Shown: positions 495-39,350, numbered from the stretch's first letter. The stretch is DNA of 39,458 nt from a virus (IMGVR_UViG_2698536397_000026); one strand, 5' to 3'. Notes: a model not told the origin generated them from the sequence alone. Program-made: numbers and translations.

Positions 495-1079
495 TTACGC
501 ACCAGCCTTTTTCTGGGTTACATTTAAATGATTAACCTTAGCTTCACATTCTTCATAAATCTCTCTTACAGTATCATCGGGTAACTCTTGTAGACTCAAT
601 GCTAGTGCTCTTTTGACTCCGCTCAATGAGTGTAGTTTTTGAATATCTGTATCAAGCAAAACGGTTAGTAGTTCGGCCCCTTTTCTGATCAATAAGTTGG
701 ACAAAATCTCTTGTTCAGATGAAGTTAGCGAGTCCCACGCCCTCATGATGATGGAATCACTATCATCAATTCTTTGTTTTTTTGTTCTTTTTGTTTGTTC
801 AATTGGTTCTTTTTTCATGCTTGGCTCATCACCATAACCATTGACTAGCCACTCCATAGATACATGTTCTCTTTCTGCAATGTTCTGGAGATGGTGCTTT
901 CTTGGTTGTGGTGGCGGCTGATTGTTTCTCCTTTTGTAGTAGTTCTGCAATGTCTGAACGTTTATTCCCCATGCTCTAGCCGCCTCACTTCTCGATTTGT
1001 AACGCTCTGCAAGACGAAAAATCCGTTCGATCACTGGTTCTTTTCCTTCGTCGAGAAAAGAACTGTTTTTCATGTTCAT
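495..1079 (-). CDS. repressor (Mu c-like), leftward; start chosen at internal ATG with AGGAA RBS (ORF extends to 1208)
   Basis: Divergent to ner at the left end as in Mu; HTH-like segment SRSEAARAWGINVQTLQNYYKRR; AAGGAA 8 nt upstream of ATG at 1079. Confidence 0.55.
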   Translation of the reverse strand: MNMKNSSFLDEGKEPVIERIFRLAERYKSRSEAARAWGINVQTLQNYYKRRNNQPPPQPRKHHLQNIAEREHVSMEWLVNGYGDEPSMKKEPIEQTKRTKKQRIDDSDSIIMRAWDSLTSSEQEILSNLLIRKGAELLTVLLDTDIQKLHSLSGVKRALALSLQELPDDTVREIYEECEAKVNHLNVTQKKAGA

Positions 1080-1118
1080 GCTCTCAGGTTCCTTTGTATT
1101 TATCTTATTGATATTAAT

Positions 1119-1180
1119 AACAAAAACACCGCAAAGAATAAAAAGAACAAAACACCTTGATTTGGTTCTTTTGTTTGTTC
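1119..1180. promoter_or_regulatory. candidate repressor operator repeats between c and ner
   Basis: Direct repeats AACAAAAACACC (1119..1130) and GAACAAAACACC (1145..1156), with inverted partner TGTTTGTTC (1172..1180), in an AT-rich divergent control region. Confidence 0.35.
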
Positions 1181-1186
1181 TATTAT
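1157..1186 (+). promoter_or_regulatory. candidate early promoter (Pe-like) for ner-A-B
   Basis: TTGATT -18 bp- TATTAT about 60 bp upstream of ner ATG. Confidence 0.35.
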
Positions 1187-1197
1187 TTACCCGTACA

Positions 1198-1221
1198 GAT
1201 ATCCGCACGAATATCCGCGCG
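1198..1221. promoter_or_regulatory. candidate Ner operator: tandem 12-bp repeats
   Basis: GATATCCGCACG immediately followed by AATATCCGCGCG, between candidate Pe and ner start; Mu Ner is known to bind tandem repeats in this position. Confidence 0.4.
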
Positions 1222-1496: not shown

Positions 1497-3587
1497 ATGT
1501 ATGTCATTGCAAAAGAACTGATTGGCGCGCCCGGAATGCCTGCTACAACAAAAGGTATTCGCCAGGCATTACAACGTTACGTACAAGGGAAAAGCTGTTG
1601 TTCCCGTCGTCGCTCAGGCTCTAAAGCAACTGAATACAGCATCGACTGTTTACCTGAAGTGACGCAGCAGGCATTACGTGAACGTTATGCCCTGCAACTG
1701 ATGACGCAAAAAGCCGATGAATCACCGGCTCCGGTGGTGACAAAGGCCAGACGCTCATCTGACGTGGTTGATGCGGTGGAGGCATATCGCGGATCACCAC
1801 AACTGATGGTCGAACGCCTCAATGCCCTGACTGAAAACCAGCGCCAGGTGGCTGATGCACGAATCGCGATCGTCAGCGAAGTGATGAAAGTCGCGCAACA
1901 ACCCGGTTTCAGCTGCGCGAAAGCTATCCGGTTTATCGTTGACAACCTGGCACGTTCGCAACTGGACGAGCGCATTGTGGCAATGGTTGAGACGGCGAAC
2001 GCCAAAAAGGGAAACAGCCGTGCGTTGAGTGAAATAACGCTGAAACGCTGGATTGCGGCCTTTAACAAGGCGCAGAACGCCGCTGAACGCCTGCTTTTAC
2101 TGGCACCGGGTAAGCGCCAGGAAATAAAAGCCGAAGATATTAACTGGCTGCCCGAATTTCTGGCGCAGTATCGCCAGTCAAACGGCCGACCAATGACCGA
2201 GGCTTACGAGGATTTTGTCGCTGAATGGCAGCACCGGCACGCTGATGAGCCTTATATGCTCGATATCATGCCGTCTTATGACACCATTCGCCGCGCAATG
2301 AAGAAACTGCCGGAAGTGGTGAAACAAAAAGGCCGGGTGACCGGCAGTGAATACCGCCAGCTTGAGGGATTCACGCGCCGCGACTGGTCAAAAATGCCGG
2401 TGAATTATGTCTGGATTGGTGACGGTCACGGCATGAAGCTGAAATGCGCACACCCGGTTCACGGTCGGCCATTTGCACCGGAAGTGACCTTTGTTATCGA
2501 CGGTGGCACGCGCTTTGTGGTGGGCTGGAGCCTTGACCTGGCTGAAAATGTTTTCGCCGTAGCCGGTGCCATACAGCACGGCATTCGCCATCACGGCAAA
2601 CCGTTTCTGTATTACTCGGATAACGGCTCCGGGGAAACCGCCGACATCCTGGATAAGGAGGTTGTGGGGATACTGCCGCGACTGGGGATTAATCACCCGA
2701 CCGGGATTGCCGGTAATCCGCAGGGACGAGGCATTATCGAACGGCTTAACCGCACATTACCGATGCGCATAGCCCGTAAATACCGCACCTATTTCGGGAA
2801 AGGTGCAGATCGCGAGACGTTACGCAAAACCAACCGCGATTTACGCTCGGCATTTACTGCCCTGCAACAGGGCAAACGGCTGAACGCCCGGCAGCAGTCA
2901 GCGATGCGTGATTTACCGTCCTGGTCTGAACTGATTGATGCCATTCGTGACGGTGTTGAGTGGTACAACAACCGGCCGCACGATGAATTACCGGTGAAGC
3001 CGAACGGCAAGCATTACAGCCCGGCGGAGTTCAGAAAAAAACGCCTGGCGGAAGAGGACACGGAAATTGAATGGCTGTCCGATGTTGAGCTGCGGGATAT
3101 GTTCCGGCCGATGGTGGAACGCCCTGTAAGACGCTGTGAAATACGCTGGCTGAATAATATTTACTACGCGCCCGAGCTGCGTGACGAGCATGGTCGTAAG
3201 GTGCTTATCAGCTATGACATTCATGATGCCGAACGAATTACCGTACGTCGCCTGGATGGCAGCGTGATTTGCGAGGCGGTATGGGACGGTAATAAACGCG
3301 AAGCCTTCCCGGTTAGCGCGGAATACTACAAACAGCAGCAACGCCTTAAAGGCATGCGTAAACGCGCAGAGGAAAAAATCCGTGATGCCGAGGATGAGGT
3401 TGTCAACGTGCTGGAGCACAAGCCGCAGGAGCCCTGGCTGGAAAACATATACCGCCCTGTGGGTAATACGGTGACCGTTCAGCAACCGGTCGCTGACGAT
3501 GAACCTGATGAAGAATACGAGCGTAATTTCCAGCGGGGATTGCAGTTGCTGGAAGCGAAATTAAAAGAAAATGACCCGCTGGCCTGA
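1497..3587 (+). CDS. A: Mu-type DDE transposase (MuA-like)
   Basis: 696 aa, second gene of early operon, start overlaps ner stop (TGATATG); size and position as MuA. Confidence 0.85.
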   Translation: MYVIAKELIGAPGMPATTKGIRQALQRYVQGKSCCSRRRSGSKATEYSIDCLPEVTQQALRERYALQLMTQKADESPAPVVTKARRSSDVVDAVEAYRGSPQLMVERLNALTENQRQVADARIAIVSEVMKVAQQPGFSCAKAIRFIVDNLARSQLDERIVAMVETANAKKGNSRALSEITLKRWIAAFNKAQNAAERLLLLAPGKRQEIKAEDINWLPEFLAQYRQSNGRPMTEAYEDFVAEWQHRHADEPYMLDIMPSYDTIRRAMKKLPEVVKQKGRVTGSEYRQLEGFTRRDWSKMPVNYVWIGDGHGMKLKCAHPVHGRPFAPEVTFVIDGGTRFVVGWSLDLAENVFAVAGAIQHGIRHHGKPFLYYSDNGSGETADILDKEVVGILPRLGINHPTGIAGNPQGRGIIERLNRTLPMRIARKYRTYFGKGADRETLRKTNRDLRSAFTALQQGKRLNARQQSAMRDLPSWSELIDAIRDGVEWYNNRPHDELPVKPNGKHYSPAEFRKKRLAEEDTEIEWLSDVELRDMFRPMVERPVRRCEIRWLNNIYYAPELRDEHGRKVLISYDIHDAERITVRRLDGSVICEAVWDGNKREAFPVSAEYYKQQQRLKGMRKRAEEKIRDAEDEVVNVLEHKPQEPWLENIYRPVGNTVTVQQPVADDEPDEEYERNFQRGLQLLEAKLKENDPLA

Positions 3588-3658
3588 AATAAAAAAATAA
3601 CCCGAGCGGCGACTCAGGTTATTTGATTAAACAAGGTATCAAATGAGAGGTTAATAAT

Positions 3659-4591
3659 ATGACTGATATTAACGATGTAATCAAGACCATTGATGAACTT
3701 ATTGATGGCGGCGTACTGACGCAGTATGCCATCGCCAGAGAGGCGGGAATTTCCGACGGCACATTATCGGCTTTCCGTAAGGGAAAATATAAAGGCGATA
3801 ACGCTGCTGTGGCTGCTTCCCTGCGTTCCTGGTATGAGAACTGGAATAAACAAAGCGCACTGCCGGAACCGCCGCAGTTTGTGGAAACGCAGACAGTCCA
3901 GGAGCTGCGCGCACTGTTTCAGGCGGTTCGTCTGATGGGCTGTATTAACGTTATTGTGGGCGTACCGGGTGTGGGTAAAACGGCCACTGCCCGTAATTAC
4001 TGCCAGGAGCAACCAAACACCTGGATGATCACCCTGTCACCCGCGCACTCCAGCGTCACGGAGTGTCTGCTGGAGCTGGCCGATGCGCTGGGGATTGATT
4101 ACACCCGCGCGAACAAAGGGGCATTATCCCGCGCCATCCGCCGTCGCCTGATGGGAACGCGTGGACTGGTGATTGTGGATGAGGCGGATCATCTTGGTAT
4201 TGACGGTCTGGAGCAACTCCGGGCAATTCAGGACGCCACGGGGATCGGGATGGTGCTTATTGGTAACCCGCGCGGATTGTTTAAAGGTGGACGCCGCGCC
4301 TTTGATGATTTATCGCGCCTGTTCAGCCGTCTTGCCCGTACAAAACAACTTCGCAAGGCCAAAAAGGCGGATGTGCTGGCCATTGCCAGGGCGTGGGGGA
4401 TCAGTGGTGAGGCCGAGCTGGCCGTCATGCAGGCTATCGCTGAAAAGCCGGGAGCGTTACGCGTTCTGACACATACGCTTAACCAGGCGTGGCTCACCGC
4501 CAGCGGTGAAGGCGCGGCGCTGACAGAAAAACATATTAATGCGGCCTTTAAAGAGGTTTATACCAACCCTGAATTACTCTCACAGGTGTGA
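3659..4591 (+). CDS. B: transposition ATPase / target DNA activator (MuB-like)
   Basis: 310 aa; Walker A GVPGVGKT and Walker B LVIVDEAD; directly after transposase. Confidence 0.85.
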   Translation: MTDINDVIKTIDELIDGGVLTQYAIAREAGISDGTLSAFRKGKYKGDNAAVAASLRSWYENWNKQSALPEPPQFVETQTVQELRALFQAVRLMGCINVIVGVPGVGKTATARNYCQEQPNTWMITLSPAHSSVTECLLELADALGIDYTRANKGALSRAIRRRLMGTRGLVIVDEADHLGIDGLEQLRAIQDATGIGMVLIGNPRGLFKGGRRAFDDLSRLFSRLARTKQLRKAKKADVLAIARAWGISGEAELAVMQAIAEKPGALRVLTHTLNQAWLTASGEGAALTEKHINAAFKEVYTNPELLSQV

Positions 4592-4593
4592 TT

Positions 4594-4815
4594 ATGGCGG
4601 TATTTAATATTCCTGATATTTACGGACGCTTTTACCTGGTTAATTTCGATAACGTGAAGGTGATTTCACTGGCCGAAAATAAAGAATGTGGCGATTTACT
4701 TTTTGAATTTAATGACCGCACACGAATGGTGATATCTGCCGGACTTGATCGCGAAGGTGCGACAGACGTTTACAGCGGAATATGCCGTTCTGTTGGTGCG
4801 AAACAAGTCAGCTAA
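4594..4815 (+). CDS. hypothetical early protein (74 aa)
   Basis: ORF overlapping B stop (GTGATTATG); start at ATG 4594. Confidence 0.5.
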   Translation: MAVFNIPDIYGRFYLVNFDNVKVISLAENKECGDLLFEFNDRTRMVISAGLDREGATDVYSGICRSVGAKQVS

Positions 4816-4827
4816 ATGAGGTGTTAT

Positions 4828-5082
4828 ATGAATATGCAATCCTGCGGTAACAAAATGAATTTATTCGACTCCCTGAACAGCGCGCGCCGTCTGACCGAAC
4901 TTGCCGGTGCGGTACTGGAACGCAGTAAGCGCTATCCGCAACGTTTTGCACTGAAAACCACGCCGCCGGTAGGCAACGTGCAGGGAACCGGTGAAATTGA
5001 AATCACCATACAGACCAACGGCCTGCGCCGCCGTGTGAAGGCCACCCGCATCAGCGGCTGCACGGTTTACTGGGAGGTGTGA
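4828..5082 (+). CDS. hypothetical early protein (about 84 aa)
   Basis: ORF with GAGGTG RBS before ATG 4828 (track start 4816). Confidence 0.5.
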   Translation: MNMQSCGNKMNLFDSLNSARRLTELAGAVLERSKRYPQRFALKTTPPVGNVQGTGEIEITIQTNGLRRRVKATRISGCTVYWEV

Positions 5083-5083
5083 G

Positions 5084-5365
5084 GTGAAAAAAAATCTCAT
5101 TGCATGGGCGTGGTCGAGTGGTCTTATTGAGTTTGGTTACGTCCTGCCGGAAGGTGCATTGCCGATAGTTGCCGGAAAGCCTGCCACGGTACGGCATGTG
5201 ATTGAGGTTATGGCGCGTCATGGACGTGATGAACAGGAGCAGTTACTGGTTCCGGGGATACCGGAAGCGGTGACGGAGGAAGAAGCCTTTAATGCCATGA
5301 TTCGGTTCTGCCGTGAGGTCAGACGCCGGGTCAGTTATCCAAACAGAACGAGGACCAGAGGATGA
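5084..5365 (+). CDS. hypothetical early protein (93 aa), GTG start
   Basis: GGGAGGTG RBS, GTG start, tight packing with neighbours. Confidence 0.5.
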   Translation: MKKNLIAWAWSSGLIEFGYVLPEGALPIVAGKPATVRHVIEVMARHGRDEQEQLLVPGIPEAVTEEEAFNAMIRFCREVRRRVSYPNRTRTRG

Positions 5366-5634
5366 GTAAAGTCGTACGCATTATTTTCGAATACAAGGAG
5401 CACGTTATCCATAAAAACGCTGATGGAACAGTGCGCATGGGGGTAAGTCTGGACATACGTTCAACCGGGATAAAGCAGAAAGGTGATGGACCCGCCATGA
5501 TTTTTGGGGTGGTTATGCTCGCGGAAAGCAGAGACTTTGCTGAACTTGTGGCAATGAAAGCCAGTGCGCTCATGAAAGATATGAGCATGCGTTCCGGGGT
5601 TATTAAAGGTAATGAATTTAATCAGCAGGGGTAA
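5362..5634 (+). CDS. hypothetical early protein, paralog 1 (90 aa)
   Basis: ATGA overlap with upstream gene; N-terminus MSKVVRIIFEYKEHVIH paralogous to next gene. Confidence 0.55.
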   Translation: MSKVVRIIFEYKEHVIHKNADGTVRMGVSLDIRSTGIKQKGDGPAMIFGVVMLAESRDFAELVAMKASALMKDMSMRSGVIKGNEFNQQG

Positions 5635-5638
5635 TTCC

Positions 5639-5932
5639 ATGAGCAAAGTACGCGTTATTTTTGAATTTAAGCATGTTTCGCATGACGAAAAACCGGCAGG
5701 CAATGACTGTGTTGAAGTGCATGAAAAGATTGGTGTGGATGTAAAAACAGAACGTGATACGAATAACAGGCCGACGTCACTCTGTGACGTTTATGCAAGT
5801 ATTCTCCAGTATCACAGTCCTGAAATTATTCAGTTTCTCTCAGCGGAATTTCAGGCATCTGTACAGGCTTTTGGGGCGGATGCCATCATTAAACGCCACC
5901 GCGTGCATAAAGCATCAGGCACACTGCAATAA
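5639..5932 (+). CDS. hypothetical early protein, paralog 2 (97 aa)
   Basis: N-terminus MSKVRVIFEFKHVSH; RBS AGGGG; start at ATG 5639 (track start 5612). Confidence 0.55.
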   Translation: MSKVRVIFEFKHVSHDEKPAGNDCVEVHEKIGVDVKTERDTNNRPTSLCDVYASILQYHSPEIIQFLSAEFQASVQAFGADAIIKRHRVHKASGTLQ

Positions 5933-5943
5933 GGAAAAACAAA

Positions 5944-6474
5944 ATGGCTAAACGTGTTACAAAATTAAAGGCCGCAGCCGAGGCTGCACCGCAGACCCGC
6001 GAAGAAGTCAGCCGCGATATCCGTACCCTGGGCGATATTCAGCGAGAGGCGCTGCGGCTGGAAACGGCGATGAATGATGAAGTGGCAGAAATCACCGCCC
6101 GTTATACGCCGCAGATTGAAAACCTTAAAAAAGAAATCAAAGTGCTTTTTAAGGGGATTCAGGACTGGTGCAAAACCAACCGCGATGAGCTGACGAACGG
6201 CGGCAAAACCAAAACAGCCAATCTGACCACCGGAACAGTGTCATGGCGGCTGGGAAATCCATCATGCAGCGTCAGCCGTGATGTGGAAGGTGTGATTGAA
6301 ATGCTGCGCCGTATGGGGCTTGAGCGATTCATCCGCACGAAAGAGGAAGTGAACAAGGAAGCGGTCCTGGCGGAGCCGGATGCAGTGAAAGGCATTGCCG
6401 GTATTAAGGTGAATAAAGGCGCTGAAAGTTTTTATGTCGAGCCTTTTGAACAGGACGCCGGACTGAATAAATAA
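5944..6474 (+). CDS. gam: Gam-like host-nuclease inhibitor (Mu Gam / Ku-like DNA end binding)
   Basis: 176 aa; MAKRVTKLKAAAEAAPQ... with TANLTTGTVSWR and FIRTKEEVNKEA segments resembling Mu Gam as I recall it; located in early region. Confidence 0.7.
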   Translation: MAKRVTKLKAAAEAAPQTREEVSRDIRTLGDIQREALRLETAMNDEVAEITARYTPQIENLKKEIKVLFKGIQDWCKTNRDELTNGGKTKTANLTTGTVSWRLGNPSCSVSRDVEGVIEMLRRMGLERFIRTKEEVNKEAVLAEPDAVKGIAGIKVNKGAESFYVEPFEQDAGLNK

Positions 6475-6571
6475 CACCGCATTAAATCTTTAAATATCAC
6501 ATCGTTTTAAGTATGGCGCTCGCGTCAGGGGACTGCCTGCGCCTGTAAACTGAAAATAAGGAACAGGATAT

Positions 6572-7114
6572 ATGGCATATTTTTATTTCAAATTAGACCG
6601 TGTGCAGACAAATAAATATTTCACCAAATATCAACAGACTGTTTTACCGCTACGCAACAGTATTCTTCGGGCATTACTGAAAAATACAGGCGCTGCCGGA
6701 TTGCGCTTAAAGCCGTTTGCCATGGACGTAATCAGTGAGTTTTATTTTTCTGGTGCTCTGCCTGCGGGCTGGCGTAAGCGCGATGATGTGGCTTTTATCG
6801 GGGACGGACCGTGCTTTATTGCCAGACCTGATGAGTCATGCCCTGAAGGACCGGCGATTGCCGCAATGATTGAAGCCGCTGAACGCGAGTTAAGAAAGCG
6901 TCCTGATTTCCTTGTCTGGCTCTGTGAAAAGCTGGGGGTAATGAGAATCCCCTCCATGTTTAACATGGACTCCTGGTGGACCCCGTCGCTCTCCCGTGAT
7001 GCCCTGTGCGTGGTGTTTAAAGTAGGCGCTTATGGCAGGGAAATAAAAGGGGGTATTCCTGAAGAATGCCAGGAGATTAAACATTCTGAATATGTGGCGC
7101 TGACGGAGGAATAA
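6572..7114 (+). CDS. hypothetical early protein (180 aa)
   Basis: ORF with AAGGAACAGG RBS; no recognisable motif. Confidence 0.55.
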   Translation: MAYFYFKLDRVQTNKYFTKYQQTVLPLRNSILRALLKNTGAAGLRLKPFAMDVISEFYFSGALPAGWRKRDDVAFIGDGPCFIARPDESCPEGPAIAAMIEAAERELRKRPDFLVWLCEKLGVMRIPSMFNMDSWWTPSLSRDALCVVFKVGAYGREIKGGIPEECQEIKHSEYVALTEE

Positions 7115-7117
7115 TTC

Positions 7118-7651
7118 ATGATTGATGCAAAAGTGCTTGAAGGGGTTAAAAACTGGCTGAGTATTTACGGGCGTCTGACCTGCGGCATTCTGGCTGAAAA
7201 AATGAATATGCCGCCATCCTCGATGGTTTATTTTCTGCGTGATGCGGTCGATGCCGGGGTGCTGACGGAATGTAACGGTTTTTATGATATTCCGCGTCCC
7301 CGCCCGGTGCAGCCGGTTCGTCGCAAATGCAGCCAGGAAGGTGCGGCTGATGATGTTCAGTGGTGCAGCTTCAGAAAATCCCTGCCGTGGATTGAGGGGC
7401 ATGATATTCCGTCAATGGCGTGGGAATTTGCTCAGGGCGTTCTGACCTGTGAAACCGTTTATGTGGTGGCTGAAGTTGATGAGCAGGCCATGAAAGAAGG
7501 CGTGCCCCAGTTTGTGATGGCGTATATCGACATACGCCTGGGTGTCATTATCTGCGGTTTAAGCGGCTGGAATATCACCTCGCGCGTTCTGCGTTACCTG
7601 ATTGTTGACCGGACGGCCGCGCCTGCCGGGATATCTGCGGAGGTGGCGTAA
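7118..7651 (+). CDS. hypothetical early protein (177 aa), possible winged-helix N-terminus
   Basis: ORF 3 bp after previous stop; N-terminal segment GILAEKMNMPPSSMVYFLRDAVDAGVLTE looks like a DNA-binding helix pair. Confidence 0.5.
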   Translation: MIDAKVLEGVKNWLSIYGRLTCGILAEKMNMPPSSMVYFLRDAVDAGVLTECNGFYDIPRPRPVQPVRRKCSQEGAADDVQWCSFRKSLPWIEGHDIPSMAWEFAQGVLTCETVYVVAEVDEQAMKEGVPQFVMAYIDIRLGVIICGLSGWNITSRVLRYLIVDRTAAPAGISAEVA

Positions 7652-8166
7652 TGTTCTTTAAAACATCAAACCCTTCCGCGCTGGCCGCGTGGCAAAAATA
7701 TCAGCAGGACTGCCAGAAAGTTAAGGATGAGGCAAAACGCCTTGAGGCCGTGCTGAATGTTGCGTGCCGGTCGGTATTTGTATCCGGTATCAGTGGCTTT
7801 TGTTTTAAAGGGCTGCGCTTTATGGATGACAAATATCCTTTTCATCGCGACTTATGGCGAAAACCGACTGCGTCGAATGGCTGGAGCTGCACACCGCGCA
7901 CATCACGTATTCCCAAAGCCCTGCGCGTTGCCTCTGACGAACTTAACAGTCTGTGGCGTGAATATTCGCCCGTCACGTATGCCAGAACCGATGCACTGTT
8001 GTTCTGGCTGGGTATTGATTTCTCGGCAATCATGTTTGGCCCTGTGAAGTGGTTCTGCGTTGACGATGTGATTTACCTTGAGTGCGGCGTAAAACCCGCA
8101 AATCAGAAAATGACCGAAATTCTGTCTGATGAGTTTTATGCTGCTGAAAAGCGAGTCAGGGGGTGA
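7651..8166 (+). CDS. hypothetical early protein (171 aa)
   Basis: ORF overlapping previous stop (TAATG). Confidence 0.5.
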   Translation: MFFKTSNPSALAAWQKYQQDCQKVKDEAKRLEAVLNVACRSVFVSGISGFCFKGLRFMDDKYPFHRDLWRKPTASNGWSCTPRTSRIPKALRVASDELNSLWREYSPVTYARTDALLFWLGIDFSAIMFGPVKWFCVDDVIYLECGVKPANQKMTEILSDEFYAAEKRVRG

Positions 8167-8169
8167 TGT

Positions 8170-8721
8170 ATGATGATTTTACAACCCATGGGGCGAAAAG
8201 GTCAGGCACCTGCTCATGTCCGTGCGTGGACACCTGAAGAAGATGCGCTGCTGATTGCGCTTTATCCATCCACCCCGGTTAAGGATATTGCTGTCAGGGT
8301 AAAAAGAAGTTTCTGGGGTGTACATAACCGGATTGTTTTATTACGCGGTACTTACCCGGAGTTGCTCAAATGCAAACGTCCAAGATTTAAACATGATGAA
8401 GATAAATTTATCCGAAAAAATGCCAGAACGATGACCGGTAAGCAAATAGGAGAATATCTGGGGCGAGACCGGGATTCTGTCCACAATCGGGCGCGATATA
8501 TTGGCGTAAGCATGAAAAAATACGGAGAATTGCTGCCCTTCACCCGTATACCTGACGATGATGTTCATCTTATTCGTGAATTACGGGATGCTGAATCACC
8601 ACGACGTCTTACCTTCCGGGAAATAGGCGAGAAATTTGAATTATCCGAGAGTACGGTGAATTTTATTTATCACCATCGCCGGACTGCCGAGGACGCTGTA
8701 TTACGGGAGTTAACGCCATGA
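8170..8721 (+). CDS. hypothetical early protein with three internal HTH-like repeats (183 aa)
   Basis: Three about 45-aa repeats each beginning with an acidic triplet (EED / DED / DDD) and containing a helix-turn-helix-like segment (two with SVHNR / GVHNR). Confidence 0.5.
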   Translation: MMILQPMGRKGQAPAHVRAWTPEEDALLIALYPSTPVKDIAVRVKRSFWGVHNRIVLLRGTYPELLKCKRPRFKHDEDKFIRKNARTMTGKQIGEYLGRDRDSVHNRARYIGVSMKKYGELLPFTRIPDDDVHLIRELRDAESPRRLTFREIGEKFELSESTVNFIYHHRRTAEDAVLRELTP

Positions 8722-8903
8722 TAAAGAGACTTGTATTTTTCGCAATTTTCGTTCCGGTGTTGGGGGTTGGTTTTATATTTGCGATTACAGGAAACCTGTC
8801 CATGATGCCAGATATTTGGTTCTTTATCAGGATGTCGCTCTTCCTGTTTATTATGAATCTTCTTATCGACATATATATCCGTATTACTGGAAAACATAAA
8901 TGA
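8718..8903 (+). CDS. small membrane peptide (61 aa, two predicted TM helices)
   Basis: ATGA overlaps on both sides; hydrophobic FFAIFVPVLGVGFIFAI and FFIRMSLFLFIMNLLI. Confidence 0.45.
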   Translation: MIKRLVFFAIFVPVLGVGFIFAITGNLSMMPDIWFFIRMSLFLFIMNLLIDIYIRITGKHK

Positions 8904-9274
8904 GAAAAATCACGTCCTTGTCAGAGTTACAGGAGATGAATATGAGTATTGAATTAAGATCGTCTTATGAGTATCGCAAATTTCTTATCGCCGGAGGCAT
9001 GAAACCGGAAGATGTGGAAAAAATCGTTTCTTTTATGGATAAGGAATGTGATAAGCGGGATGTGTCAGAAATTATTATGGATGACATGATTCTGGATTCA
9101 GTCGTGGCGTTAAGTCCGTTATGGATTGTGCATTCTCTTGCGGAAATTGCCAAAGGCACCGATAAACAGGCAGCTGTTGCTGCCCTTCAGACGCTTAATG
9201 AAATGCGTATATCTCCACGCCCGACATTAATACAGATGATTTTGTCCAGTATGGAGGATAAAGCAAATGAATAG
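8900..9274 (+). CDS. hypothetical early protein (124 aa)
   Basis: ORF translationally coupled to neighbours. Confidence 0.5.
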   Translation: MRKITSLSELQEMNMSIELRSSYEYRKFLIAGGMKPEDVEKIVSFMDKECDKRDVSEIIMDDMILDSVVALSPLWIVHSLAEIAKGTDKQAAVAALQTLNEMRISPRPTLIQMILSSMEDKANE

Positions 9275-9464
9275 TCTACCCGCTGGATGGGCGCGCCCTC
9301 TGATGGCTAAGAAGCATCATTTTTTTAAAACTGGCGATAATATCAGTATATGTAGGCGGTGGTTATATCTGGCTCATAATCGCGAGCCGGATACATTTGA
9401 AAGCCCTGATGACTGTGCCGAATGTCGCAGAAGACTGAATAAGGAGAAAGATAATGGACAATAG
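9267..9464 (+). CDS. small Cys-containing protein (65 aa)
   Basis: ORF overlapping neighbours; C-terminal CAEC pair. Confidence 0.4.
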   Translation: MNSLPAGWARPLMAKKHHFFKTGDNISICRRWLYLAHNREPDTFESPDDCAECRRRLNKEKDNGQ

Positions 9465-9750
9465 TTCTCTGTTGTTCTGGTGCTTATATATCACATCCTT
9501 TTTCGGCGCATTTGTTATTACCCGGTGGTTATGTCGAAAAATCATCTGCTTTTTTGATAAAAGACATCCGGTTGAACGGGCGGCTGATGCGCTCATTCAG
9601 CAGGCCATTGTGTTATATAGCGGTGAATTTTTCTGCCGGATAACAACCAGAGATGGCTGGCACATAATGATTATTCCACCAACACACCATGCCCGGTGGG
9701 ATGAGGCAGAAAAGGCTTTCCATGTCCGTAAAAAGGTAAATACGGTATGA
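9454..9750 (+). CDS. hypothetical membrane-anchored early protein (98 aa)
   Basis: N-terminal hydrophobic LLFWCLYITSFFGAFVI; ATGA overlap with gemA. Confidence 0.5.
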   Translation: MDNSSLLFWCLYITSFFGAFVITRWLCRKIICFFDKRHPVERAADALIQQAIVLYSGEFFCRITTRDGWHIMIIPPTHHARWDEAEKAFHVRKKVNTV

Positions 9751-10256
9751 GAGGAAAACTGATATCCGCCATTCATGTGGCAAAGCGCGAGCTTGCCCTG
9801 GATGATGAGACTTATACATCCGCGCTGCTGGCAGCCACCGGCAAAACCAGCTGCCGGGATATGTCACCGGATGAGTTATCCCGCGTGCTGGATGTTTTCA
9901 AAAAACGCGGTTTTAAAGTGCGTCAGAACCCGGTTAACCGGGCCTTAAAACCGGGTACGGTGACCGCCAAAATTCGCGCCATCTGGAAGGTGATGCACCG
10001 GCAGGGCTTTATCTCTGATGGTGCGGAAACCGCCCTTAACCGCTGGGTGAAATCGCAGACGGCCGCGCAAAACGGCGGCGAAGGTGTGGCAAACTGGCAG
10101 TGGCTGGAGCAACACCCCGCCCTGGCCTCAGATGTGCTGGAGCGTCTCAAGCGATGGCACCGCCGCAAAATGCTGGCCGCGATGGGAATGCCCGAACGCA
10201 CGCTGATGGGGTATGACGCCGTTTGCAGGCAGTATGAAAAATCACTTCCCCGTTAA
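9747..10256 (+). CDS. gemA: GemA / Mu gp16-like regulatory protein
   Basis: 169 aa, last gene of early operon; N-terminal IHVAKRELALDDETY...TGKTSCRDMSPDEL pattern typical of GemA family as I recall it. Confidence 0.65.
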   Translation: MRGKLISAIHVAKRELALDDETYTSALLAATGKTSCRDMSPDELSRVLDVFKKRGFKVRQNPVNRALKPGTVTAKIRAIWKVMHRQGFISDGAETALNRWVKSQTAAQNGGEGVANWQWLEQHPALASDVLERLKRWHRRKMLAAMGMPERTLMGYDAVCRQYEKSLPR

Positions 10257-10260
10257 CTCC

Positions 10261-10290
10261 AAATCCCGCCACAACGCGGGATTTTTATTT
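10261..10290 (+). terminator. rho-independent terminator ending the early operon
   Basis: AAATCCCGC-CACAAC-GCGGGATTT hairpin followed by TTTATTTT. Confidence 0.65.
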
Positions 10291-10325: not shown

Positions 10326-10751
10326 ATGGCAGAAACTCAGATGAGCATGTTTGGTGGTGACAGTGAGCAACTGCACGCCCTTATCGACCGCCTTGATGAC
10401 ATCCCTGATGATGTTCTCAAAAAGAACTGGCCGCGGACCCTGTCAGAACTGGTTGAAGTCACCGGCGCAGAACTTCAGCGTCAGGGGATTGAGCCGGTAC
10501 TGGCCGGTAAACTGGCACGCAAGGTGGCTGCGGCTCAGGCAGCCTATATGGGCGGACGGGGTTATTACCTGCCGGTCGGGGAATCTCTCTTTGCCGAGCT
10601 GCGAAACAATGAGATATTTTCGCGCTGGGACCGGGGCGAGAAAATTGAATCCCTTCGCCGCCATTACCGGATGTCAGAAACCCAGATTTATACCGTCATA
10701 CGCGAACAGCGCCGTCTGCATCTGGCAAGAACGCAACCGCCACTTTTCTGA
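10326..10751 (+). CDS. Mor/C-family transcriptional activator (middle/late gene activator)
   Basis: 141 aa; C-terminal HTH region and ending ...QPPLF, similar to Mu Mor / C proteins as I recall them; own RBS GGAGG after terminator. Confidence 0.7.
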   Translation: MAETQMSMFGGDSEQLHALIDRLDDIPDDVLKKNWPRTLSELVEVTGAELQRQGIEPVLAGKLARKVAAAQAAYMGGRGYYLPVGESLFAELRNNEIFSRWDRGEKIESLRRHYRMSETQIYTVIREQRRLHLARTQPPLF

Positions 10752-39036: not shown

Positions 39037-39350
39037 ACCCGAGCTGGAAGCATCATCCAGAGCCCTCATGAAACGACTGTAACAGCTGTTGAAAAACCGG
39101 AATGCACTCTTCATTGCAAACATTTCAGGGATGAAGTGAAGATGAATTGAGACGTAGTATCCACATCAAGCCGGCGTTATCCGGTGAGGCGCAATGTTGC
39201 GGGGGCTTTATCCCTGGTGGCATTGGTTGCTGGAAAGAGAAAACCCCCGCACGTTGAGAGGTTTAACCTGACAACAGAACGGGGGCTAATCTTGAACCAG
39301 AACAATTCAAGAATAGCCGCAAAATGTTGTCATTACAACAAGGCGGCTAT

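Follow-up and report, generated by a model that had tools for sequence, protein, structure and literature searches.

What occupies the interval between the transposition gene B and gemA in this Mu-like phage, and do the small genes packed into it counter host defences? In Mu, the ORFs of the semi-essential (SE) region mostly have no assigned function, the region is dispensable for plaque formation and its deletion lowers host killing (PMC3325207), and host viability after infection is restored when it is deleted (PMC3325207; PMC3820752). We addressed these questions in a viral sequence of 39,458 nucleotides (IMGVR_UViG_2698536397_000026), referred to here in its entirety as the window, in which the interval spans positions 4594-9750. 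The original prediction described this interval as a Mu-type SE early region of about 14 small genes, among them gam, and as a plausible reservoir of anti-defence proteins.

Identity and gene content of the block

The window is 100% identical to sequenced E. coli prophages and 97.8% identical to the Sakai "prophage Sp18, Mu-like phage," and the Sp18-type prophage was found in 234 of 5,426 complete genomes. The block is flanked upstream by A and B, the latter encoding a MuB AAA+ transposition ATPase (3659-4591, + strand; Pfam Phage-MuB_C, 2.5e-25, and AAA_22), and downstream by GemA (9747-10256, + strand; Pfam GemA, 4.1e-30; 43% identity to Mu GemA) and by Mor/C, 3' of GemA (10326-10751, + strand). 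Like the Mu SE region, it runs from B to gemA/mor in the direction of the early operon (+ strand), and it holds homologs of Mu kil and gam (Pfam Phage_Mu_Gam, 1.5e-41; 57% identity to Mu Gam) together with homologs of gp11, gp12, and gp9. Because 9 of its 14 proteins have no detectable counterpart in Mu, its equation with the Mu region rests on position and these five anchor genes. We consider it very probable that positions 4594-9750 represent the SE early block of an Sp18-type Mu-like prophage, the accessory stretch of its early operon, in agreement with the predicted Mu-type region and its Gam. Such a block is an ordinary textbook trait of Mu-family phages that has already been catalogued, and in this respect the prediction restated a known property. 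What is new here is a hot spot of cassette swapping from the tenth gene to gemA, a probable pair of tandem paralogs, and a conserved covarying hairpin at 6515-6543.

Exactly 14 consecutive + strand ORFs (w1 to w14) lie between B and GemA, and the NCBI PGAP annotation of an identical prophage contains the same 14 coding sequences, which cover 4988 of the 5157 nt (96.7%). An SD-like motif precedes every ORF, each ORF has a PHROG family match (1e-5 to 1e-105), and per-ORF dN/dS values of 0.04-0.39 against divergent E. coli variants indicate purifying selection wherever substitutions sufficed. For these reasons we regard all 14 as real genes rather than chance ORFs. Several encode just 61-73 amino acids (aa) and belong to no Pfam or NCBIfam family, as would be expected if some were chance open frames or annotation noise, but dN/dS is far below 1 in divergent variants for all of them, and PHROG matches, SD motifs, and homologs in Salmonella or Shigella phages leave that explanation a negligible probability. 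By contrast, stop codons interrupt the sole long antisense ORF (6890-7402) in relatives, and an ORF of this length is within the range of a shuffled-codon null. For three genes, the PGAP starts (4828, 5639, and 8942) differ from the longest-ORF starts (4816, 5612, and 8900), and SD positions favor the PGAP starts.

The predicted tight array is confirmed, as 13 of the 15 junctions are spaced by no more than 12 nt, but the claim that almost all are joined by ATGA or TAATG overlaps holds for only four or five of them. Three junctions are ATGA overlaps (four with the alternative w12 start) and one is TAATG; of the others, two are overlaps of 8 and 11 nt, seven leave 1-12 nt between the genes, one leaves 38 nt (an ATGA overlap if the alternative start is used), and the last is the 97-nt gap that follows gam. 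From this geometry we infer co-transcription and translational coupling of the 14 genes. The block would be one polycistronic stretch of an early operon, ner-A-B-...-gemA, transcribed from Pe, the early promoter upstream of ner, with 14 small cistrons that each carry an SD and lie so close together that ribosomes probably move straight to the next. The transcript would end just past gemA, where an intrinsic-terminator-like hairpin with a 9-bp stem followed by TTATTTT (10261-10284, + strand) is the likely early-transcript end and the only strong + strand terminator in a consensus scan. A consensus promoter scan returned one weak + strand match, with total matches below those in shuffled sequences.

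The SE region of Mu (kil/gp5 to gp15) shares with the block its position from B to gemA, strand, early operon, and small, tightly packed genes, and both have a gap of about 97 nt with the same conserved hairpin 3' of gam. The prediction that gene content and order differ from Mu is correct for content, since only 5 of the 14 genes (the kil, gam, gp11, gp12, and gp9-like genes) have Mu homologs, but not for the position of gam. This gene was predicted to be the seventh after B here and adjacent to B in Mu; it is the sixth in both (Mu_10 in the Mu record). The block has 14 genes in contrast to 11 in Mu; w1, w3, w4, w5, w7, and w11-w14 have no detectable Mu homolog, and Mu gp6, gp7, gp8, gp13, gp14, and gp15 are absent from it. 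Moreover, kil is preceded by the extra gene w1, and the gp9-like gene, which has three repeats and is longer than in Mu, follows gp12, whereas in Mu it precedes gam. Most ORFs belong to uncharacterized families rather than to well-characterized Mu genes, and those lacking a Mu counterpart fall into existing uncharacterized phage families common to the Mu-like phages of Salmonella, Shigella, and Yersinia.

Relatives share different portions of this layout. Salmonella Mu-like prophages carry w1, Kil, w3, a w5-like gene, Gam, the hairpin, a DUF5420-like gene, gp11, and gp12 in the order of the block, but some of them differ from it in having DUF3164 instead of Gam, an extra gp8-like gene, or two DUF5420 paralogs, and some have different 3' cassettes (113, 231-303, and 84 aa). 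The Shigella phage SfMu and Yersinia Mu-like phages share with the block the DUF5420-like gene after gam and a relative of w12. The Pseudomonas Casadabanvirus phages D3112, DMS3, and JBD30 share the B ... Gam ... GemA-Mor layout, including numerous small ORFs, and have a Gam that is 54% identical; the w3 family is present (DMS3-12) but lies directly 3' of gam rather than after kil, and most other ORFs are unrelated.

From w1 to Gam

The block divides into three evolutionary modules. The left comprises w1-Kil-w3-w4/w5-Gam; the right, separated from it by the conserved RNA hairpin, holds the DUF5420-like gene, gp11, gp12, and w10; and the third is the low-GC 3' segment w11-w14, with cassette exchange between related prophages. 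The products would be accessory "host-takeover" proteins, dispensable for transposition itself. They would include a Kil-family protein that kills the host or inhibits its division, Gam, which would protect DNA ends from RecBCD by capping them, and a basic DNA-binding protein with several HTH units. The remainder are the homologs of Mu gp11 and gp12, two membrane proteins of small size, and six soluble proteins that are likewise small. We infer the functions of the individual proteins, all encoded on the + strand, from their sequences and families.

The first gene, w1 (4594-4815; 73 aa; phrog_3375, 8.1e-47; dN/dS 0.09-0.28), is 55% identical to an 80-aa Salmonella protein at the same position and is the conserved first gene 3' of B in enterobacterial Sp18-type and Salmonella Mu-like prophages; Mu lacks it. 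It is followed by the Kil-family gene w2 (4828-5082, alternative start 4816; 84 aa), which matches phrog_2679 "Kil" (7.8e-46), is named "Kil protein family" by PGAP, and is 71% identical to a Salmonella protein with PF26843 Kil_protein. Its identity to Mu Kil is 33% over 39 aa only, about half the length, and family membership is what makes it a predicted host-killing protein or cell division inhibitor.

The GTG-initiated gene w3 (5084-5365; 93 aa) encodes a widespread small phage domain whose family is mislabeled "host nuclease inhibitor." The label was rejected, as w3 aligns solely to residues 176-248 of a 266-aa "gam" ORF of D3112, outside the Gam domain, and this ORF owes its existence to the loss of 1 nt compared with DMS3, which has gam and the w3 homolog as two distinct genes. 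The name is an annotation artifact of this one-base frameshift in the D3112 record; w3 has no Pfam Gam match, and no experimental report of nuclease inhibition by the family was found in the literature. Having spread over hundreds of database entries, the misleading name can now be removed. A confident structure model of w3 has MbtH-like proteins as its best neighbors, without significance among solved or viral structures, and none among known inhibitors.

The next two genes, w4 (5362-5634; 90 aa; phrog_4107, 1.1e-61) and w5 (5639-5932, alternative start 5612; 97 aa; phrog_2230, 1.8e-40), align to each other in hhalign (E 3.9e-5, probability 70%) and are probable tandem paralogs. Both w3 and w4 are missing in E. 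coli strain M1 (variant L006). The w5 gene forms a fast-diverging allele series, with 59-62% identity in variant L003 versus 96-100% for the flanking genes, and is 35-37% identical to Salmonella proteins at the same position. The left module closes with w6 (5944-6474), whose residues 19-167 match positions 1-149 of the 149-position PF07352 profile (142 bits; cutoff, 28.3). This full-length match identifies w6 as Gam, by homology a Ku-like DNA-end-binding protein predicted to block RecBCD; Gam proteins of the Mu type are Ku-like, in contrast to the Gam of lambda, a DNA mimic (10.1101/2025.08.30.673261).

The intercistronic hairpin, the right module, and the 3' cassettes

A conserved intercistronic element (6500-6543, + strand) follows gam, with an A/U-rich stretch (6500-6514) ahead of a 29-nt two-tier hairpin (6515-6543). 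The hairpin is conserved in Mu, SfMu, and E. coli and Salmonella Mu-like prophages, and was found at 83 IMG/VR loci, always with Gam or DUF3164 on one side and gp11 or DUF5420 on the other; among the loci examined, no match was seen outside enterobacterial-type ones. It shows two covarying pairs plus G-U wobbles, matched by 0 of 500 shuffles, and has a minimum free energy of -14.3 kcal/mol. A search of the window against Rfam at the gathering threshold was negative, as was one of 6440-6600 at an E value of ≤1. We rejected an intrinsic (Rho-independent) terminator, which calls for a GC-rich hairpin and a T run: the letters that follow here are TGTAAACTGAAAA, and the terminator scan did not report the hairpin. 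The hairpin marks the border between two halves of the operon.

Immediately 3' of it lies w7 (6572-7114; 180 aa; phrog_2260, 1.1e-74), a divergent member of the DUF5420 superfamily with 40% identity to SfMu gp11 "DUF5420 family" and 31% to Salmonella PF17457 proteins; neither Mu nor the E. coli isolate AF39 (variant L005) carries it. The homolog of Mu gp11, w8 (7118-7651; 177 aa; 67% identity; Pfam Gp11_C, 7.9e-40), and that of Mu gp12, w9 (7651-8166; 171 aa; 54% identity), precede w10 (8170-8721; 183 aa; phrog_323 "transcriptional regulator," 6.3e-59), a basic protein (pI 9.9) with repeated HTH/Myb-like units. Sub-threshold Pfam HTH matches at residues 131-167, the PGAP names "DNA-binding" and "SANT/Myb-like," and the resemblance of its C-terminal two-thirds to Mu gp9 (31% identity) point to a putative DNA-binding protein.

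The w10/gp9 family, gp11, and gp12 are conserved across Mu, SfMu, and Sp18-type and Salmonella prophages, and it is conceivable, though we rate it rather doubtful, that they modulate the replication of Mu, the state of the nucleoid, or gene expression, with phenotypes of the classical "arm," "cim," or "gem" type, instead of countering host defences. The identities to Mu given above place gp11 and gp12 first in conservation when Gam is set aside, the two always occur side by side and 3' of the hairpin, and the basic multi-HTH character of w10 would fit such a helper role. However, no recognizable enzymatic or replication-protein domains were found, a structure model of gp12 has no significant fold match among solved or viral structures, and no mapping of the classical phenotypes to the gp11, gp12, or w10 ORFs was found in the literature consulted.

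The variable segment begins with w11 (8718-8903; 61 aa; phrog_19804, 1.3e-5), which is carried by some variants only and has two transmembrane helices predicted by hydropathy. It continues with the acidic w12 (8942-9274, alternative start 8900; 110 aa; pI 4.8; phrog_1988, 5e-44), related to SfMu gp14 (34-37% identity), and with w13 (9267-9464; 65 aa), which has three cysteines including a CxxC motif and matches phrog_2358 (2.6e-33) over the N-terminal half of the profile only. The last gene, w14 (9454-9750; 98 aa; phrog_17269, 2.2e-32), has an N-terminal transmembrane helix predicted by hydropathy. The GC content is 0.35-0.46 in w10-w14, whereas B and gemA have 0.55-0.57. From w10 to gemA, each of five variants has an arrangement of its own, and the interval is evidently a hot spot of cassette swapping between related prophages. 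The cassettes of relatives include opposite-strand genes, namely, DUF2513 in L005 and, in L006, a minus-strand gene for a 113-aa protein.

Such opposite-strand genes are typical of morons, and together with the predicted membrane helices of w11 and w14 they raise the prospect that part of the block, especially these two genes and the cassettes, is weakly expressed from the prophage and serves superinfection protection or host modification rather than lytic growth. This role fits a report that Mu lysogens transcribe the SE genes at a low level from the early promoter (PMC3820752). We nevertheless consider it unlikely, as all 14 genes lie on the early-operon strand with no promoter of their own in the scan, and neither a PADLOC match, among the 10 proteins scanned, nor exclusion-protein homology was found.

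The anti-defence question

Could at least one small protein beyond Gam inhibit host immunity, such as restriction-modification, RecBCD-linked defence, Gabija, or abortive infection? The best candidates would be w3, the w4/w5 pair, w7, and the variable w11-w14 cassettes. These are presumably early-expressed genes adjoining Gam, and the loss of w3/w4 and w7 in some variants, the divergent w5 allele, the probable paralogy of w4 and w5, and the cassette swapping in the low-GC w10-gemA interval count in favor of the idea because such patterns are typical of arms-race genes. For the Pseudomonas Mu-like phage JBD30, moreover, genetic interactions of both Gam and GemA with Gabija have been described (10.1101/2025.08.30.673261).

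Variability is equally expected of any non-essential phage gene, however, and positive selection was not detected, since dN/dS remains at 0.04-0.39. Comparison with known defence and anti-defence families gave no match: Pfam returned no ArdA or Ocr, NCBIfam no such family, PDB sequence searches no solved anti-defence structure, and a PADLOC scan of 10 proteins a single nonsignificant match, to w10 (E 0.0083, 13.8 bits). DNA-mimic anti-restriction proteins of the Ocr/ArdA type have about a quarter or more D+E residues and a very low pI. The maximum D+E fraction here is 0.17 (w12), and pI ranges from 4.8 to 10.4 across the proteins, so the composition is not that of an acidic DNA mimic. Neither of the two structure models supports the idea, w3 having no known inhibitor as a neighbor, and its nuclease inhibitor label is an artifact. 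The proposed reservoir was a reasonable prior that these searches leave plausible but unsupported, with no demonstrated anti-defence content beyond Gam, and we judge it possible at best. A further proposal, which we advance only tentatively, is that the hairpin, with the A/U-rich stretch ahead of it, is an undescribed cis-acting processing or stability signal that gives the two operon halves different expression levels and that at least one of w3, w4/w5, w7, and w11-w14 is a new defence inhibitor.

Small, dispensable early host-takeover blocks also occur in the lambda pL kil-gam region and among the T7 class I genes with Ocr. Like the SE block described here, they include a division inhibitor and a RecBCD antagonist, but there is no sequence relationship, and no Ocr-like acidic protein is present in the block.

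Scaffold genes and swappable cassettes of the SE block are now defined, which indicates where to look for counter-defence or exclusion functions, and the conserved structured RNA element of the Mu early operon is directly testable. About 4% of the complete genomes of E. coli carry this prophage, among them O157:H7 and further strains that produce Shiga toxin. In Mu-family phages, the SE region has long been a block without assigned functions, and any function found in it would extend to the relatives in Salmonella and Shigella.

Identity and gene content of the early block

The 39.5-kb window is an essentially complete Mu-like prophage. Pfam matches identify a helix-turn-helix protein on the repressor side (495-1208, minus strand), Ner (1247-1495), transposase A (1497-3587), and B (3659-4591) ahead of the early block at 4594-9750, with GemA (9747-10256) and a Mor/C-family activator (10326-10751) behind it. 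An rdlD antitoxin sRNA at the right end (39238-39303, minus strand; Rfam RF01813, 87.6 bits) indicates that the window extends into the nonphage E. coli chromosome at the ldr/rdl locus. Several complete E. coli genomes carry prophages that are 100% identical to 4594-9750, and the O157:H7 Sakai locus annotated as "prophage Sp18, Mu-like phage" is 97.8% identical to it. A published description treats Sp18 as a Mu-like prophage that appears intact (PMC2669165). We found the block in 234 of the 5,426 complete E. coli genomes, and it recurs, as an "inserted Mu-like phage," within the records of two Stx-converting phages. By both its position and its gene content, 4594-9750 is the Sp18-type form of the semi-essential (SE) early region of Mu.

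As originally predicted, 14 consecutive plus-strand ORFs (here w1 to w14) lie between B and gemA, and PGAP annotates the same 14 coding sequences in an identical prophage. Coding sequence makes up 96.7% of the 5,157-nt block, and a Shine-Dalgarno-like motif stands upstream of each ORF. Comparison with four divergent E. coli variants gives each ORF a dN/dS of 0.04 to 0.39, where substitutions suffice to judge, and all 14 match a PHROG family (E-values of 1e-5 to 1e-105). These 14 ORFs are real genes. The only long ORF on the opposite strand (6890-7402, 170 aa) was rejected, as it is interrupted by stop codons in E. coli strain M1, the Shigella Mu-like phage SfMu, and Mu itself, and 29% of codon shuffles produce an ORF of at least equal length.

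The genes are tightly spaced, but the expectation that almost all of them are joined by ATGA or TAATG overlaps does not hold, since most junctions are of other types. Three are ATGA overlaps (an alternative w12 start would add a fourth), one is TAATG, two are longer overlaps (8 and 11 nt), and eight are spacers, seven of 1 to 12 nt and one of 38 nt. A true gap, 97 nt long, occurs once, after gam. The gam gene had been counted as the seventh after B, and its position had been considered unlike that in Mu. We count it as the sixth, and gam is also the sixth gene after B in Mu, so the claimed difference does not exist. An early block of small, functionally uncharacterized genes is a textbook feature of Mu-like phages, and this particular block is already known: its exact sequence has been public for years, with every ORF annotated and every protein assigned to a PHROG family.

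Homologs of the 14 genes and the naming of w3

Mu counterparts were identified for 5 of the 14 genes. The w2 product (4828-5082) belongs to the Kil family (PHROG E-value of 7.8e-46, with a weak 33% identity to Mu Kil), w6 (5944-6474) encodes Gam (57% identity to Mu Gam), and w8 (7118-7651) and w9 (7651-8166) encode homologs of Mu gp11 (67% identity; Pfam Gp11_C) and gp12 (54% identity; family PF26885), respectively. The basic, 183-aa w10 protein (8170-8721) contains repeated HTH/Myb-like units, and its C-terminal two-thirds resembles Mu gp9 (31% identity). A Mu homolog is detectable for none of the remaining nine genes, which, judging from their matches elsewhere, are not orphans. Positional homologs of w1 (4594-4815), w3 (5084-5365), and w5 (5639-5932) are present in Salmonella Mu-like prophages. 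The product of w7 (6572-7114) is a divergent DUF5420-superfamily protein common to SfMu and to Yersinia and Salmonella Mu-like elements, and w12 (8942-9274) is related to SfMu gp14. Two transmembrane helices are predicted in the 61-aa w11 protein (8718-8903) and a single N-terminal one in w14 (9454-9750), while w13 (9267-9464) encodes 65 aa with a CxxC motif.

The adjacent genes w4 (5362-5634) and w5, together spanning 5362-5932, are probably tandem paralogs (hhalign E-value of 3.9e-5, probability of 70%), and the N-terminal motif MSKV(V)R(I)IFE(Y/F)K is common to both. We also considered w7 and w9, which look alike by eye, as distant paralogs and rejected this relationship at the sequence level (hhalign E-values of 0.054 and 0.22, probability of 1% or less). 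Sequence and profile searches of the PDB with w1, w3, w5, w7, w8, w9, w10, and w12 returned no significant match, and the searchable literature holds no functional data on Mu gp11/gp12, DUF5420, or DUF3164.

The single suggestive lead in the block is w3, which both PHROG and PGAP name a "host nuclease inhibitor." In Pseudomonas phage D3112, a 266-aa ORF is annotated as "gam," and the w3 protein aligns with its residues 176-248, a stretch lying past the Gam domain, an arrangement that could be taken for a "Rosetta stone" fusion of Gam and w3. DMS3, a close relative of D3112, carries gam and the w3 homolog as two distinct genes with 1 nt between them. Comparison of the two loci (3068-3868 in D3112 and 3078-3879 in DMS3) reveals a single base missing from D3112 some 50 nt upstream of the gam stop codon, indicating that the fusion is a frameshift, which is probably a sequencing error. 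We rejected the fusion on this basis, and a further point against it is that the Salmonella w3 homolog persists where DUF3164 replaces Gam. The w3-family proteins seem to owe the name "host nuclease inhibitor protein" to the D3112 frameshift, and the name has spread across a family of at least 619 proteins and 546 clusters at 50% identity. Longer homologs with a w3 domain have fusion partners without Pfam domains, and a structure model of w3 found no match in a viral structure library at an E-value of ≤0.001.

A common scaffold with exchangeable genes and a conserved hairpin

Genes within the block come and go among relatives. Strain M1 lacks both w3 and w4, isolate AF39 lacks w7, and another E. 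coli variant carries a w5 allele that is only 59 to 62% identical amid otherwise near-identical prophage DNA. The interval between w10 and gemA (8718-9750) shows five different cassette arrangements in five variants, oppositely oriented genes included, and this comparison marks it as a cassette-exchange hot spot. Its cassettes in relatives encode proteins of 75, 103 to 110, and 116 aa, and that of AF39 includes a minus-strand DUF2513 gene. The GC content of the interval (0.35 to 0.46) is markedly lower than that of its flanks (0.55 to 0.57). In strain M1, a minus-strand gene encoding 113 aa also follows gemA.

The enterobacterial scaffold, as seen in the Salmonella loci, begins with w1, (a gp8-like gene), Kil, w3, a w5-like gene, and Gam or DUF3164, and continues after a conserved gap with zero to two DUF5420-like genes, gp11, gp12, variable genes, GemA, and Mor. 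In one Salmonella prophage, two DUF5420-superfamily paralogs stand in tandem (7201-8330 of locus L012; 182 and 192 aa, about 25% identical), in contrast to one (w7) in the window and none in Mu. In two other Salmonella prophages, a 212-aa DUF3164 (PF11363) protein is encoded exactly at the Gam position (L011, 6577-7215; L013, 6572-7210; corresponding to 5944-6474 of the window), with the w5-like gene on one side and the conserved hairpin on the other. In such prophages, DUF3164 may take over the role of Gam.

The 97-nt gap after gam (6475-6571) has about 81% column identity between the window and Mu, compared to about 69% nucleotide identity in the flanking genes, and this conservation holds even though the gene downstream differs between the two. 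Its conserved core comprises an A/U-rich stretch (6500-6514) directly followed by a two-tier, 29-nt hairpin (6515-6543; −14.3 kcal/mol). Mu and SfMu carry this element, as do the E. coli variants and the Salmonella prophages, those with DUF3164 for Gam included. A pattern search in which the outer stem was left free detected it in 83 IMG/VR contigs, always at the same boundary, with Gam or DUF3164 upstream and gp11, a DUF5420-like gene, or another gene downstream. The hairpin core recurs at 10479 and 23586, but within genes and without the arms, and we rejected these copies as chance matches.

The element could be a conserved "linker" favoring recombination between modules, or a conserved protein-binding site. 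We prefer to read it as an intercistronic mRNA processing or stability signal, in which an RNase E-type A/U-rich site would be combined with a protective stem-loop. Among 20 distinct variants, which are related and were partly constrained in the inner stem and loop by the search pattern itself, pairing is maintained in 96.6% of cells, compared to 29 to 54% in slid controls. Compensatory double changes occur at two pairs (C-G to U-A and G-C to A-U), which may stem from no more than one or two evolutionary events, and one further pair shows G-C to G-U changes, tolerated on the plus (mRNA) strand only. The observed covariation score was reached by none of 500 column shuffles. The hairpin has no T-run, did not appear among the hits of the terminator scan, and has no Rfam match, and folding the full 111-nt gap as a single RNA gives no more stability than shuffles do (z of −0.53). 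Support for a structure is confined to the 29-nt hairpin and comes from comparing sequences. The searchable literature, in which coverage of older Mu papers is thin, contains no description of a post-gam stem-loop. Acting as a processing or stability signal, the element would uncouple the abundance of the operon's two halves.

Expression of the block and its relation to host immunity

A promoter and terminator scan found nothing convincing on the plus strand inside 4594-9750, and a strong terminator-like hairpin lies directly after gemA (10261-10284). This arrangement suggests that the 14 genes are most likely expressed within a long early transcript, and such a transcript has been described in Mu (PMC3820752). 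We infer that translation would pass between the closely spaced cistrons and that the products would be accessory, with individual roles outside the Gam and Kil families likewise putative. Deletion of the SE region in Mu restores host viability after infection (PMC3325207), which, by analogy, fits Kil-type host killing together with other host-directed activities. The Mor/C-family activator, which is 39% identical to Mu C and 27% identical to Mor, is the only one in the window, and the lysozyme gene lies directly downstream of it. Mu instead possesses mor, gp18-20, and C. Together with the terminator after gemA, this difference suggests that the transcription cascade of the window phage may be two-tier rather than three-tier.

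The block had also been proposed as a reservoir of anti-defense proteins. NCBIfam, PADLOC (ten proteins scanned), and permissive Pfam scans linked none of its proteins to a known defense family. Variable gene presence, a divergent allele, and cassette swapping are compatible with an arms-race role, though not specific to it. Gam is a known RecBCD antagonist. Mu-type Gam and GemA have each been reported to sensitize a Pseudomonas Mu-like phage to Gabija (2025 preprint, 10.1101/2025.08.30.673261). The block thus touches host immunity, but via already known members. What it still offers is a corrected annotation for the w3 family, a map separating conserved from swappable genes, and the conserved hairpin.
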